Counted from the first letter of the stretch, positions 31,397 to 36,716 are shown. The stretch is DNA of 64,000 nt from Candidatus Saccharibacteria bacterium CPR2 (GCA_021404905.1 QWHN01000003.1:23080-87079); one strand, 5' to 3'. Numbers and translations: made by a program. Notes: generated by a model from the sequence alone, not told the origin.

Positions 31397-31483
31397 GGGG
31401 ATGTGGCGGAATCGGTAGACGCGCTAGCTTCAGGAGCTAGTGGGCATTTGCCCGTGGAGGTTCGAGTCCTCTCATCCTCACCA
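31397..31483 (+). tRNA. tRNA-Leu(CAG)
   Basis: Hand-folded cloverleaf: acceptor GGGGATG/CATCCTC, anticodon loop TTCAGGA, long variable arm TGGGCATTTGCCCGT, T-loop TTCGAGT, encoded CCA. Confidence 0.9.
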
Positions 31484-33256: not shown

Positions 33257-33274
33257 CTCTCTCTGCGAAGAAGC

Positions 33275-33440
33275 TAGAACCCATTTTGAGAAAACGGCTG
33301 AATAAAACAGGCGTCAACCCAGAAAAAGCTTTAGCATTTTTTGAGATTTCCCCCGCCGAGATTTTTATTTTTAAGGAAAAGGTTTTTGTCGTGTAGTGCT
33401 GCGCTTGAAGCGCAGGTGGTTCGGGGCTTCGCCTAACTCG
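33275..33440 (+). repeat. GC-rich repeat (family B), copy X
   Basis: Aligns in inverted orientation with 36080-36290. The 30-bp core TTTTTTGAGATTTCCCCCGCCGAGATTTTT (33337-33366) is the exact reverse complement of 36144-36173. Confidence 0.85.
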
Positions 33441-33475
33441 TAAGTTTATCTCTGTTAATGTGCTACTATTAAACA

Positions 33476-34108
33476 ATGATTACAGTTTTAGCGAATTCAG
33501 CGAACGAAGCATGGCTCACAACTTTCAAAACTTTGATGAATGATGGGGACGAAACTGGCAACGATAGATACCTGCGCGATGAAGTAGCACTAATTGAAAT
33601 TTCTAATCCAGAGGTTGAACCCATAGATTCTCGTTTTCCTATGAGTCAAGCGGATGTTGACTTAATAAATAGATATATCTACACGGGTGAGAACGAAGAG
33701 AAAATAACACACGAATGGACGAAACTTTATTATCACCGGGCATTCGACGAGCCAAACTCTCAAATAGAATTCTTGATTAAAAAACTTAACGAAAAACTAC
33801 CGGCCGGAGAAACTCAAATTTCAATGTGGGATAAGAACATCGACCAAGACAAAAAGATATCGCCCTGCACACAGATAATATGGGCACGCATAAAGCATGG
33901 AAAACTTGAGCTACATGTTCATACAAATTCCTCTGATGCTTACAAGAAACTTTTAATGAACATCTTGGAATTTATCTCTTTACAGCACTATATTGCCAGC
34001 CGTATTCATTTACCGGTGGGGAAATATTATCACTTCATAGATTCCTGTCATTTACACCTCAAGGACAGCAACAAGATCCAGCTTCTACAAAGCTATTTAC
34101 AGAAGTAA
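33476..34108 (+). CDS. Short ThyA-family protein (thymidylate synthase / dNMP hydroxymethylase-like)
   Basis: SPCTQIIWARIKHGKLELHVHTNSSDAYKKLLMNI aligns with the ThyA catalytic block PC..QFyV.dGKLs..lyQRS.D...G.pfNI. Downstream, VGKYYHFIDSCHLH matches G......d.HiY. Only 210 aa. Confidence 0.55.
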   Translation: MITVLANSANEAWLTTFKTLMNDGDETGNDRYLRDEVALIEISNPEVEPIDSRFPMSQADVDLINRYIYTGENEEKITHEWTKLYYHRAFDEPNSQIEFLIKKLNEKLPAGETQISMWDKNIDQDKKISPCTQIIWARIKHGKLELHVHTNSSDAYKKLLMNILEFISLQHYIASRIHLPVGKYYHFIDSCHLHLKDSNKIQLLQSYLQK

Positions 34109-34112
34109 ATAT

Positions 34113-34241
34113 GGCAGTACTCAAATAGATCGTAGACACATCCATCTCGTAGAATAGGGTTTGTAAAAACAACTAACTACGAAAGGAGAGACAATAATGT
34201 CTAACCGTATTGGATCATCTACGATCTATTTGAGTACTGCC
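34113..34241. repeat. 129-bp element with perfect 24-bp terminal inverted repeats
   Basis: GGCAGTACTCAAATAGATCGTAGA (34113-34136) and its exact reverse complement (34218-34241). The 81-nt interior holds TAGAAT and AAAGGAGAG-N7-ATG. Confidence 0.9.
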
Positions 34242-34292
34242 AACTTAGTTCGGTTTAGGTCAGAAGTGGTAAACCACTTACAACAATTCTAA
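34197..34292 (+). CDS. Possible 31-aa small ORF starting inside the inverted-repeat element
   Basis: Strong SD GAAAGGAGAG 7 nt upstream of ATG 34197. Translation MSNRIGSSTIYLSTANLVRFRSEVVNHLQQF. It is below the track size cut-off and there is no homology evidence. Confidence 0.3.
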   Translation: MSNRIGSSTIYLSTANLVRFRSEVVNHLQQF

Positions 34293-34347
34293 CATTTACA
34301 CTGTTGTTTTAATATGCTAACAGATAATATCTGGTATAATAACACTA

Positions 34348-34728
34348 ATGAAACAGGGTAAAATCACACCCAATGGTGTTGTGCTTCATACGCACGAAAA
34401 CGCTACCGTCGTATTCTTGACTGAGCAGGGTTTTGACGTTGAGTTACTGCCACCAGTCCAACGCAAAGGCGCACGAACCCCTGATATTAAAATGCTCGAC
34501 GTTGAGTGGGAAATGAAAAGCCCAAGAAGCAACGGCAAATACACCATTGAGCATAGTTTCAGGTCAGCTCTTAAACAATCACCGTACATTATCTTTGATA
34601 TTCGAGGTAGCAAAATACCACAGCAAAAATGTATAGCCGAAATAGAGCGCCGTTTTAACGATTTCAAGAAAGTCAAAAGAGTGATAATCATCACCAAAAC
34701 ACGCAAACTACTTGATTTTAATAAGTAG
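34348..34728 (+). CDS. Small PD-(D/E)xK nuclease-fold protein, toxin-like
   Basis: E(16)...TPDIKMLDVEWEMKSP gives a D-x(n)-E-x-K arrangement. The 126 aa size and the following KQSPYIIFDIRGS block resemble stand-alone REase-fold toxin domains. Confidence 0.45.
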   Translation: MKQGKITPNGVVLHTHENATVVFLTEQGFDVELLPPVQRKGARTPDIKMLDVEWEMKSPRSNGKYTIEHSFRSALKQSPYIIFDIRGSKIPQQKCIAEIERRFNDFKKVKRVIIITKTRKLLDFNK

Positions 34729-34804
34729 ATTTAGTATAATTCCAGATAAGAAATGCGACCTCTGCTGTATAGCTCAGGTCGCATTTCACTTTTCAGAGGA
34801 CTTA

Positions 34805-35254
34805 CTATAAGCCAAGTAGTTGCTTCTTCTTTGTCGTAAACTCTTCTTCGGTTATGATGCCTTTTTCTTTTAATGTTGCTAATTTTTCAAGTTCATCTGC
34901 ACCGCTATGAGATTGTTGGCTACCGCTTGATTGCGATATTTTTGCTTCAATCTTTTCTTTTGCTTCAAGGAAATCTTTATTCTTTCTGGCGTGGAAGTTT
35001 ACAGTATTTTCGTCTGTGGTTGATTGCATAAGACCACTTTTAGCTTCAGAGCCACCTTTTAGGCTTAGCTGAAGATAGCCAGCAGTCATACCAGCTTTTT
35101 TAAGCTGAACAGCAACAATACTCGTGTAGGGTATCGTCTTATCACCTCGAAGCATACCGCCACCAAGCAAAAAGCCTTTCGCACCTCTTTTGATTATTAC
35201 GCCAGCATCAGTAAGTATAATCGTGCCGTTATAGCCTTTATATTCATCGTTCAT
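34805..35254 (-). CDS. Bacterial PH-like (DUF4429-type) domain protein with C-terminal SHOCT domain
   Basis: GTIILTDAGVIIKRGAKGF...IVAVQLKKAGMTAGYLQL (bPH-like). C-terminal ELEKLATLKEKGIITEEEFTTKKKQLLG is the SHOCT signature. Confidence 0.7.
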   Translation of the reverse strand: MNDEYKGYNGTIILTDAGVIIKRGAKGFLLGGGMLRGDKTIPYTSIVAVQLKKAGMTAGYLQLSLKGGSEAKSGLMQSTTDENTVNFHARKNKDFLEAKEKIEAKISQSSGSQQSHSGADELEKLATLKEKGIITEEEFTTKKKQLLGL

Positions 35255-35272
35255 TTTATCTAACCTATCCTT

Positions 35273-35875
35273 TTACAGCCCTACTGAATCTGCGCCATAA
35301 GTGGCTTGAGCTGTCGTGAATTTATCGAACACCAATTGATCGATCAGACCTTGCCTTGAGAAAGACGAAAACTCCATGTATGATTTCGCTTTTTTAGCAG
35401 CTTGTTCATTCCAGTCAGCACCCGCATTGTCTGCGCCATACACAGCGTCTGCATGAGAAAATTTGTCAAATTCCAGTTGTGCGACCAAACCATCACGAGA
35501 AAATCCTGCAAAATCGAGATAACTCTTTGCTTTACTAACAGCATTTTTCTGGCTTGTTGTTTCTGTTGGCTTTGCCGGTTCTTGAGGTTTTGGCTCTTCT
35601 GCTGGCTTCTGCTCTGTTTTTGTTTCCGCTTCTGTAGCCTGTTGTGCAGTTTCTTGAGGTGTTTCTTCTTTGCTTGCTGTATTATTGGTCTGAGGCGTGC
35701 TAGGACTAGCAAGCGAAGCGATTACCACAATGCCCACCAAAATGCTTACTCCTATTTTGGCTCCTTTTGCCCAATTAGTGTACTTCCACATTAGATACAA
35801 ACCTACTGGGAAAAAGAAAATTAGCAATAAGATTATTGCTGGTGTTTTTTCGTACCATTTAGTATTATTTGACAT
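35273..35875 (-). CDS. Membrane-anchored protein with two Ltp-type repeats (phage superinfection-exclusion lipoprotein family)
   Basis: ATG 35875 (MSNNTKWYEKT...), a TM hairpin and a Pro/Glu/Thr linker. Two repeats follow: KAKSYLDFAGFSRDGLVAQLEFDKFSHADAVYGAD and KAKSYMEFSSFSRQGLIDQLVFDKFTTAQATYGAD. The longer track start 36169 runs into repeat DNA. Confidence 0.7.
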   Translation of the reverse strand: MSNNTKWYEKTPAIILLLIFFFPVGLYLMWKYTNWAKGAKIGVSILVGIVVIASLASPSTPQTNNTASKEETPQETAQQATEAETKTEQKPAEEPKPQEPAKPTETTSQKNAVSKAKSYLDFAGFSRDGLVAQLEFDKFSHADAVYGADNAGADWNEQAAKKAKSYMEFSSFSRQGLIDQLVFDKFTTAQATYGADSVGL

Positions 35876-36079
35876 TTTTACTCCTTTGCTTTGGTTAATT
35901 ATATCGCCCGTTTGCGAGAACCAAAAAGCCCGCCACGAGCGGCAGCCGAAGCCACCCAATGCCGTTTCCAGCATTGACCACAGAAAGAAGTACTCATGAC
36001 GAGCTGTTTCTTTCTGTGGATTTGTAAACCATGCCAAGCTATTGCTTGGTTTAGGTTTATGAATTGATTGTACTATTTG

Positions 36080-36290
36080 CACCGCTGTTTTGCCAGATAT
36101 AGCGAAGCGCACCCGACCAGAAAACACCCTTTTCCAAATCCTAAAAAATCTCGGCGGGGGAAATCTCAAAAAATATGCAAAGGGTTTTTCTGGCGGGGCG
36201 CAGCGGGCAGACTTGCCCGCTAGGCGGCGGGGCTGAGCTTACACTTCAGCCTTAGCACTTCGTGCTAAAATAGGTTCTAGCCTTTTCGTA
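36080..36290 (-). repeat. GC-rich repeat (family B), copy Y, inverted relative to copy X
   Basis: 36144-36173 is the exact reverse complement of 33337-33366. Flanks align too (ccagaaaaaccctttgcat vs ccagaaaaagctttagcat; ggaaaagggtgttttc vs ggaaaaggtttttgtc). Confidence 0.85.
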
Positions 36291-36291
36291 T

Positions 36292-36378
36292 TGGTGCGCG
36301 AGAGAGGACTTGAACCTCCACGGGATTGCTCCCAACGGCCCCTCAAGCCGCAGCGTCTACCGATTCCGCCACTCGCGC
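36292..36378 (-). tRNA. tRNA-Leu(GAG)
   Basis: The reverse complement folds as GCGCGAG/CTCGCGC acceptor, anticodon loop TTGAGGG, long variable arm TGGGAGCAATCCCGT, T-loop TTCAAGT, and CCA. Confidence 0.88.
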
Positions 36379-36595: not shown

Positions 36596-36640
36596 TACTT
36601 TAAACTTTTAAATTTATACTTTATACTACCTCTATTCGAG

Positions 36641-36716
36641 GGTCTATAGCTCAGTCGGCTAGAGCGTCTGGTTTACACCCAGAAGGTCGTAGGTTCGAGT
36701 CCTACTGGACCCACCA
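36641..36716 (+). tRNA. tRNA-Val(TAC)
   Basis: GGGTCTA/TGGACCC acceptor, anticodon loop TTTACAC, T-loop TTCGAGT, CCA. Confidence 0.92.

Follow-up and report, generated by a model that had tools for sequence, protein, structure and literature searches.

A free-standing CdiA-CT-type nuclease with a conserved downstream hairpin, and a separate LOOT-Ltp-SHOCT cassette, in a Saccharibacterium

Stand-alone toxin domains without an immunity gene are a recurring annotation puzzle, and a stretch of chromosome from Candidatus Saccharibacteria bacterium CPR2 offers a case in which the comparative data point to an RNA partner. The stretch, referred to at its full length of 64,000 nt as the window, is numbered from its first letter. 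Within it a cassette of ~465 bp (module A, 34332-34795, plus strand) consists of a gene for a free-standing nuclease of 126 amino acids (aa) followed by a short hairpin, and this pair is a compact and widespread protein-RNA cassette that is best explained as a variant of the RNA-antitoxin systems. We read the hairpin as a small RNA with a transcript of its own that works together with the nuclease, most likely as its RNA antitoxin, and it would be the likeliest answer to the puzzle of the missing immunity gene. Beside it on the opposite strand lies module B (36096-34805, minus strand), in which a LOOT RNA is followed by an Ltp gene and then by a bPH-SHOCT gene.

The nuclease, Ltp and bPH-SHOCT genes had been picked out by a first-pass annotation, and all three open reading frames (ORFs) lie where it placed them (Table 1). 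It had grouped them, together with a neighbouring gene for a short protein of the ThyA superfamily, as a prophage moron block or small anti-phage islet whose genes might cooperate. For comparison 69 other loci with a nuclease homologue were collected, with flanks of up to 5-6 kb each; at none of them was a homologue of the Ltp, SHOCT or ThyA-like gene, or of a 31-aa ORF upstream of the nuclease (orf31), found within 5 kb, and the co-occurrence of the nuclease with orf31 or with the SHOCT gene that had been proposed as a check is therefore seen at 0/69 loci. Likewise, neither the nuclease nor the ThyA-like gene is present at any of the 80 independent metagenomic bPH-SHOCT loci that were surveyed. 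The two modules are moreover convergent, each being read from its own predicted promoters. Unlinked genes in relatives are what the annotation had itself named as telling against a cooperating block, and because no locus in either set links the genes, the trio is not a unit; on these comparisons the interval is two independent accessory modules rather than one.

The explanation favoured here, which we consider to have about an even chance of being right, is that of two independent modules in which the nuclease and hairpin form a type III-like toxin-antitoxin (TA) or abortive-infection pair and the Ltp and bPH-SHOCT genes are exclusion cargo. A bolder reading, possible rather than probable, is that the nuclease and a hairpin RNA of ~45-60 nt represent an undescribed family of RNA-neutralised toxins and, separately, that LOOT is the regulatory RNA of an integrase-adjacent exclusion slot, made up of LOOT, variable cargo and bPH-SHOCT, in mobile elements of the candidate phyla radiation (CPR). 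The toxin family would span CPR bacteria, Endomicrobia and Lachnospiraceae as a one-protein abortive-infection or addiction cassette. All of the conclusions drawn here rest on comparative sequence analysis, and it is by comparison that the nuclease family, its catalytic residues, the lack of a conserved protein partner, the conservation and covariation of the hairpin, the promoter signal in front of it and its exclusive linkage to the nuclease are established.

The nuclease and the hairpin behind its gene

The 126-aa protein is a nuclease with a PD-(D/E)xK fold. The restriction-endonuclease fold originally proposed for it is borne out by a match to CdiA_C (PF18451) of 55 bits (cut-off 26.6), over residues 43-120 and profile positions 1-80 of 81, and the motif quoted in its favour, TPDIKMLDVEWEMK, is the PD...ExK core. 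An AlphaFold2 model (pLDDT 73, with residues 1-29 of low confidence) has only one Foldseek match in the PDB with E<0.001, which is 4g6v_A, the CdiA-CT toxin of Burkholderia pseudomallei 1026b (E 1e-4, probability 1.0, TM 0.59/0.57, 104 columns). A PDB sequence search with the single protein gave no match, and a profile search gave a weak one to 4G6V (E 0.33). E17, D46, E55 and K57 are invariant in 27 homologues, and in the profile alignment to 4G6V_A the first three stand opposite E, D (NPD) and D (FD), with R/K72 opposite a later Lys. The active site is, as judged from this alignment, intact. In line with the characterised relatives, the protein probably acts as an RNase or tRNase; the PF18451 members CdiA-CTII Bp1026b and SitA3 are tRNase toxins (PMC9990079).

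The family is made up of 743 clusters at 50% identity and is distributed over Saccharibacteria, Nomurabacteria, Endomicrobia and Lachnospiraceae, sometimes with 2-3 copies per genome. Among the representatives listed, ~95% have a length of 125-135 aa, stand alone and align with the query from end to end. Fusion to a delivery protein is not seen in the window, where the 126-aa protein is all toxin domain, and is found only in distant relatives such as that of Streptococcus phage Javan46 (L244:1873-3315; loci used for comparison are numbered with an L). There, a CdiA_C-like domain is the C-terminus of a 480-aa protein whose gene adjoins the portal gene on its downstream side, with two tiny ORFs coming next, and the protein looks like a fusion of a head protein and a toxin. 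Searches of NCBIfam and PHROGs with the nuclease gave nothing useful apart from a fusion match, phrog_13257.

That a toxin-type nuclease should lack an obvious immunity gene, as the first-pass annotation had remarked, is true as far as proteins are concerned. When neighbouring ORFs of at least 50 aa were compared at 70 loci, no conserved protein partner was found in any lineage, and the recurrent neighbours are backbone genes only: an FAD oxidase (9 loci), LemA/HtpX (L011) and tRNA-Leu (several loci, adjoining the nuclease gene in the relatives L007, L016, L023 and L035). The gene has, on this evidence, a loosely syntenic home in close relatives, with neighbours that turn over. No immunity gene lies directly downstream in the window, the next gene being convergent. 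Two candidates were rejected, an antisense ORF (34386-34706) that recurs only because it overlaps the conserved nuclease gene, and orf31, which is present as annotated and has no homologue at any of the 69 nuclease loci compared, being unique to this genome.

What does accompany the gene is a hairpin. The DNA shared with relatives spans 34331-34795, beginning 13-17 nt before the ATG (the similarity starts at 34331-34335) and ending just past the hairpin. At its upstream end is a predicted extended -10 box, TGGTATAAT (P1), and as this stands so close to the ATG, with no Shine-Dalgarno sequence in between, the nuclease mRNA is probably leaderless. TGnTAnAnT boxes are also found 6-9 nt before the ATG in L001, L003 and L005, and no conservation was seen in the regions upstream of the nuclease beyond the -10 box. 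At the other end a promoter-like sequence with 10/12 consensus matches (P2) stands before the hairpin. The order of stop codon, -10 box, hairpin and T-run is found after the nuclease gene in all four lineages examined, namely Saccharibacteria, Endomicrobia, Nomurabacteria and Lachnospiraceae. Of 42 distinct loci, 76% have a -10 hexamer (at least 5/6) at a distance of 3-16 nt in front of the hairpin, compared with 22% in shuffled spacers, 20 of the 42 have a TGn extension, and the Lachnospiraceae loci have a full TTGACA-17-TAtnAT promoter in this position. The predicted product is a small RNA of ~48 nt that would double as the 3' end of the nuclease mRNA.

The hairpins fall into two classes, which were tested separately: a symmetric class (the window type and Endomicrobia) and a bulged class (Lachnospiraceae and other Saccharibacteria). 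Covariation was measured on alignments made from sequence alone, that of the symmetric class being free of gaps. In the symmetric class (A12) 96.7% of cells are paired and 14 of the 15 pairs have changed on both sides, compared with 26-48% paired in slid controls. The bulged class (A10) also has 96.7% of cells paired, with double changes in 12 of 15 pairs, and slid controls for the two classes together gave 26-53%. Conservation extends to unpaired bases, as CGAC...GCC.A is invariant within the bulged class, and the GA/CCAA bulges and a G-N-A-U apex are invariant across phyla. Identity of the window to relatives is 79-97% in the hairpin, 61-81% in the coding sequence (CDS) and 42-59% in the spacer, with third positions of the four-fold type saturated (25-44% identity). 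A hairpin that stays above the CDS in identity when such sites are saturated must be under purifying selection on its primary sequence, unlike a simple terminator.

A covariance model built from the bulged class (R3) had 17 significant matches in 580 kb, every one of them on the same strand as a nuclease gene and directly 3' of it, and none in 633 kb of unrelated control loci. One match (L069:753-794) was found blind, with no prior protein hit, and revealed a second, divergent nuclease paralogue. This paralogue (L069:326-794) has a TTGACA-17-TATACT promoter and a hairpin, and is tail-to-tail with a 426-aa reverse-transcriptase-like gene (792-2072; YVDD motif). Hairpins co-diversify 1:1 with paralogous proteins, the three paralogues of L042 having three different hairpins; these paralogues are clustered on alternating strands (L042:4475-6317), each with its distinct hairpin downstream. 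Further variants of the arrangement include L057, where downstream of 5082 a symmetric hairpin is followed in tandem by a bulged one ~73 nt after the stop, and L001 (5213-9280, Saccharimonadales), where the cassette sits among Fic/MazE-like, Zeta-toxin and ParE/RelB genes in a toxin-antitoxin island. An integron attC-like hairpin was also considered and rejected, as the RYYYAAC/GTTRRRY cores are missing and there is a directional T-run and an upstream promoter. Rfam 15 has no family that matches the hairpin, and no report joining CdiA-CT with an RNA antitoxin was found in the literature searched.

What the hairpin RNA may do

The arrangement is reminiscent of the type III TA systems (ToxIN, CptIN, TenpIN), in which a nuclease gene is likewise paired with one for a small structured RNA and a protein antitoxin is absent. 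As in these systems, the promoters and terminator of module A are arranged such that RNA would outnumber toxin, paralogous pairs diversify together, and copies are in some cases found within TA or defence islands. We propose that an abundant hairpin RNA of ~48 nt, made from P2 and also as the 3' end of the toxin mRNA, would keep the nuclease inactive, and that a loss of the unstable RNA, as when a phage shuts off host transcription, would free it. We infer transcription of the RNA, its binding to and inhibition of the protein, the toxicity of the protein and a role in phage defence.

A number of points weigh against an RNA antitoxin. The toxin fold is PD-(D/E)xK and not that of ToxN/AbiQ, and type III systems have tandem repeats and a terminator upstream of the toxin, whereas here there is a single downstream hairpin with its own promoter. 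P1, P2 and the hairpin RNA are all predictions. A single covariance model for all hairpin subclasses was tried and failed, R3 scoring just 16 bits (E 0.7) on the window-type hairpin, so the homology of the subclasses would rest on position, architecture and a shared CUGCUG(G/U)AU apex rather than on one model. PADLOC-DB 2.0, a check that had been proposed at the outset, recognises none of the proteins: there is no match for the nuclease, the ThyA-like protein or orf31, and for the SHOCT and Ltp proteins the matches are weak (E 0.004 and 0.001) and fall in low-complexity regions. Finally, a plain intrinsic terminator would likewise appear as a hairpin with a T-run, and the conservation of the nuclease (60-90% protein identity across Saccharimonadales), together with its loosely syntenic position, would fit a non-toxic cellular nuclease as well.

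These last points lead to the main rival explanation, in which the hairpin is a mere terminator, the -10-like box is incidental in AT-rich DNA, and the nuclease is a harmless, vertically inherited enzyme of repair, recombination or RNA processing. We regard this as unlikely, although it retains an appreciable chance: the hairpin and T-run match the terminator consensus, the gene is loosely syntenic in relatives near the FAD oxidase, tRNA-Leu and LemA, the nuclease was not found in IMG/VR or plasmids and has no PADLOC match, and in L066 and L067 the hairpin begins 2-5 nt after the stop codon, which leaves no room for a promoter. It is weakened, however, by the promoter signal and by the conservation of the hairpin above that of the gene. 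A terminator would not be expected to exceed the CDS in conservation at saturating synonymous divergence, nor to keep its unpaired bases invariant across phyla, and the excess of -10 boxes over shuffled spacers, with their TGn extensions and the full Lachnospiraceae promoters, argues against an incidental box. A harmless inherited enzyme also fits poorly with a patchy distribution across phyla, with 2-3 paralogues in some genomes that each have their own hairpin, and with nearest characterised relatives that are all toxins.

It is improbable, though conceivable, that the hairpin RNA is functional without being an antitoxin, for example as a trans-acting small RNA from the 3' untranslated region, as a stabiliser of the mRNA, or as a substrate or cofactor of the nuclease such as a processing site. 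The same conservation and linkage would be expected in this case, and the RNA would indeed also be the 3' end of the mRNA. Against this, the hairpin forms no better duplexes with the first 60 nt of its mRNA than shuffled sequences do (median z -0.1, 30 loci), the RNA is nearly all self-paired and so has little sequence left with which to pair with a target, and strict 1:1 co-diversification with paralogues is what is expected of a protein-binding partner. An antisense, type I-like role against the 5' end of the mRNA was rejected on the same complementarity result, and the RNA is on the same strand as the nuclease gene.

There is only a slim prospect that the nuclease is an orphan polymorphic toxin aimed at other cells, either the actinobacterial host or competitors, which would need no immunity gene if its own target differs. 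Saccharibacteria are epibionts, and the domain family is known from contact-dependent inhibition, from myxobacterial outer-membrane exchange (SitA3) and from fusions to phage head proteins. The window protein does resemble CdiA-CT(II)Bp1026b (4G6V) in its PD-(D/E)xK fold, in the aligned catalytic Glu, Asp and Asp/Glu and in a domain of ~130 aa. Unlike that toxin and SitA3, however, it is free-standing and cytoplasmic and lacks any part for delivery, whether CdiA filament, pretoxin or lipoprotein, and unlike the former it has no CdiI-type immunity gene and has its catalytic Lys where the canonical ExK motif places it (K57). The protein has neither a signal peptide nor a delivery, pretoxin or repeat domain, there are no secretion genes nearby, Endomicrobia and free-living Lachnospiraceae have it in this stand-alone form too, and the linked RNA would be left unexplained. 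Least probable of all, with a very small chance indeed, is that the nuclease, bPH-SHOCT, Ltp and perhaps ThyA-like genes do after all work together in a single prophage moron block or anti-phage islet, for although they are adjacent, have each a defence or exclusion flavour and are bracketed by an inverted repeat and tRNA genes, the comparative data already contradict this, with the zero counts in both sets of loci, the convergent transcription from separate promoters, and the want of a recombinase homologue in the window and of a PADLOC match.

If the hairpin does neutralise the nuclease, this would extend type III-like TA biology to a novel toxin fold and RNA architecture, and would provide a small defence or addiction module to the Saccharibacteria, whose genomes are tiny and for which few defences are known. 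The candidate RNA partner is one that goes unreported by protein-centred tools and databases (Pfam, PADLOC, Rfam 15), and the 465-bp cassette is directly testable in cultivable strains of Pseudobutyrivibrio. Carriers that can be cultivated include Pseudobutyrivibrio xylanivorans DSM 14809 (L050), Pseudobutyrivibrio sp. MD2005 (L049) and Lachnospiraceae bacterium G41 (L062).

The LOOT RNA with the Ltp and bPH-SHOCT genes

The double Ltp repeat that had been described in the 200-aa protein of module B is confirmed by Lipoprotein_Ltp (PF07553), which matches two stretches at 100 bits, the best at residues 154-197; phrog_4980, 'superinfection exclusion', matches at 144 bits, and phrog_15667, with the same annotation, matches too. 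Two N-terminal transmembrane helices (~12-30 and 40-56) are followed by an acidic, Pro/Thr-rich linker and the two repeats, and as the protein has no cysteine it would be anchored by its transmembrane helices and not as a lipoprotein. Ltp of Streptococcus thermophilus phage TP-J34 is known to block the injection of phage DNA via the tape measure protein (PMC3952083), and the window protein shares with it two C-terminal Ltp repeats after a flexible linker, placed at the outer face of the membrane, and relatives in mobile-element contexts. Unlike TP-J34 Ltp, it has two transmembrane helices in place of a lipobox cysteine, its gene is chromosomal in a CPR bacterium with no surrounding prophage or adjoining integrase, and it is predicted to be co-transcribed with a bPH-SHOCT gene, with a LOOT RNA in front. 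By homology with TP-J34, the Ltp repeats on the outer face would bind the tape measure protein of an incoming phage and so block injection, and exclusion of phage DNA at the cell surface is the likely role.

The second protein carries both of the domains it had been credited with, each above its Pfam cut-off. DUF4429 (PF14472; 29.7 bits, cut-off 25) covers residues 36-102 and SHOCT (PF09851; 37.4 bits, cut-off 27) covers residues 120-147 of 149, at the extreme C-terminus; there is also a match to phrog_2700 (81 bits), to which no function is assigned. Its gene is separated from the Ltp stop by an 18-nt spacer that holds a ribosome-binding site (RBS), and the two form an operon. The protein has 436 homologues at 70-97% identity across CPR groups. 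SHOCT-like domains are predicted to hold proteins at the inner leaflet (PMC11237479), which suggests that the bPH-SHOCT protein may be the partner of Ltp at the cytoplasmic face of the membrane.

Upstream of the operon is a LOOT RNA. The LOOT motif was found in the screen of Weinberg et al. 2017 (PMC5737381). The window copy scores 82.6 bits (gathering score 46.4) and, like the Rfam family, is full-length with a covarying four-hairpin structure; across 15 homologues the paired cells amount to 93%, compared with 34-43% in slid controls, and changes on both sides are seen in 37/41 pairs. Copies elsewhere have their own -10 box and a hairpin and T-run that overlap the last helix, and in the window a TATAAT box and an RBS lie between the LOOT hairpin and T-run and the Ltp ATG. 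LOOT may thus be a separately terminated small RNA or a leader that gates read-through.

Rfam lists LOOT as a small RNA with no function named, and here it stands consistently on the same strand upstream of cassettes of a variable gene and bPH-SHOCT, which gives a first functional context to a motif of unassigned role: LOOT precedes Ltp/bPH-SHOCT cassettes beside serine recombinases. It is found in this position at 13 of the 80 metagenomic bPH-SHOCT loci, and where a large serine recombinase is present it often comes just before LOOT. The order LOOT-Ltp-SHOCT occurs in L073-77, LOOT-Ltp-(228-aa gene) in L012/13 and serine recombinase-LOOT-SHOCT in L078. LOOT is absent from 610 kb of control loci, and the model of Rfam gave no extra copies in 20 loci scored negative by the model of this analysis. 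Its link to Ltp and bPH-SHOCT appears to be unreported, judging from the Rfam entry. The slot between LOOT and bPH-SHOCT varies in its cargo, which includes Ltp, other transmembrane or surface proteins, two PD-(D/E)xK-like proteins (motifs identified by eye) and a Cys-rich protein (Table 1), and it looks like a hotspot for moron or defence genes.

At 21/80 loci the gene immediately before the SHOCT gene encodes an Ltp domain, at 4 more such a gene is close by, and at 14/80 there is a large serine recombinase no further than 4 kb away. The linkage of Ltp and bPH-SHOCT fits a surface-exclusion operon of mobile-element origin, and the moron idea put forward in the first-pass annotation, read as that of a mobile element, can be kept for this pair. 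Relatives of Ltp occur in 119 IMG/VR contigs and near serine recombinases in L014, L195, L198 and L211. In L014 (5001-9815) a 52%-identical Ltp homologue is found with DUF5681, DUF5659, a helix-turn-helix protein and, directly next to a tRNA gene, a 545-aa serine recombinase, the whole being probably an integrated element. Because other CPR copies adjoin large serine recombinases, module B is here best read as the cargo or remnant of an integrative element beside tRNA-Leu. To be set against this, neither of the two serine recombinases used as queries has a homologue in the window, no prophage is recognisable there, LOOT accompanies only a minority of bPH-SHOCT genes, and phage exclusion by a transmembrane-anchored Ltp, like the role of bPH-SHOCT, is argued from homology.

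The accessory block and its other features

The host belongs to the Saccharimonadales, and the window is a segment of its chromosome with genes mostly on the plus strand. Both modules lie in an accessory block (~33260-36290) inside a tRNA-flanked variable region, and the genes on either side of the block are housekeeping genes, with a solute-binding protein and the FAD-linked oxidase on the left, and tRNA-Leu(GAG), tRNA-Val, LemA, HtpX and LigA on the right.

Table 1. Positions of the features in the window, with LOOT copies and slot cargo from other loci
Feature	Position	Strand	Remarks
tRNA-Leu(CAG)	31397-31483		
Inverted ~90-140-nt repeat, left copy	33266..33406	+	Contains GAGATTTCCCCCGCCGAGATTTTT; upstream of ThyA-like gene
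ThyA-superfamily short protein, 210 aa	33476..34108	+	Adjoins both modules, member of neither
Perfect 25-bp inverted repeat	34112..34242		81 nt between arms
orf31, 31 aa	34197-34292		Strong RBS
P1, predicted extended -10 box	34332..34340	+	7 nt before nuclease ATG
Stand-alone PD-(D/E)xK nuclease, CdiA-CT(II)Bp1026b type, 126 aa	34348..34728	+	Pfam CdiA_C
P2, promoter-like TTGATT-17-TATAAT	34712..34740	+	Overlaps last codons and stop; ends 9 nt before hairpin
Two-tier hairpin, 38 nt, and T-run	34750..34795	+	Hairpin 34750-34787; T-run 34790-34793
Cytoplasmic bPH (DUF4429) and SHOCT protein, 149 aa	34805..35254	-	Second gene of Ltp operon
Double-Ltp membrane protein, 200 aa from ATG	35273..35875	-	PF07553; good RBS
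LOOT RNA gene (RF03000)	35930..36096	-	RNA 36057 to 35941; full-length Rfam match
Terminator-like hairpin and T-run of LOOT	35945-35930	-	Shares bases with last LOOT helix
Predicted LOOT promoter CTGGCA-18-TACAAT	36096-36067	-	
Inverted ~90-140-nt repeat, right copy	36105-36288	-	Upstream of LOOT
tRNA-Leu(GAG)	36292..36378	-	Edge of variable segment
tRNA-Val	36640-36716		
LOOT copies elsewhere	L073:4225-4344; L012:4823-4941; L078:4785-4925; L204:3763-3884; L226:684-807; others		
Slot cargo examples	L193:2956-3861; L231:1081-1677; L228:3319-3987; L206:424-1431; L230:1017-1472		

The two inverted copies of a ~90-140-nt repeat bracket the entire block and share an identical 24-mer, GAGATTTCCCCCGCCGAGATTTTT. 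Part of the motif is also found upstream of LOOT in L013, and no exact copy was found in 243 loci; the repeat may be a shared regulatory region or the scars of an insertion beside tRNA-Leu. Between the ThyA-like gene and the nuclease lies a perfect 25-bp inverted repeat, the loop of which holds the RBS and ATG of orf31, its right arm lying inside orf31. It has a predicted RNA fold of -84 kcal/mol (z-score -10.3) and is unique to this genome, as searches of the window, of 244 loci and of IMG/VR turned up no further copy.

The call of a ThyA-like gene stands in part, as there is a partial match to Thymidylat_synt (39 bits) and one to TIGR03283 that is under its cut-off (67 bits), with no link to either module. 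No homologue is present at any of the nuclease, Ltp and SHOCT loci examined, the gene was not found in IMG/VR, and the protein has only 22-33% identity to ThyA-type proteins of phages. The gene has TGCTACTAT 6 nt before its ATG and is apparently leaderless. In this gene as in that for the nuclease, the ATG is preceded at 6-7 nt by an extended -10 box and there is no Shine-Dalgarno sequence (33467-33478 and 34332-34350), which suggests that leaderless mRNAs are made in this Saccharibacterium.

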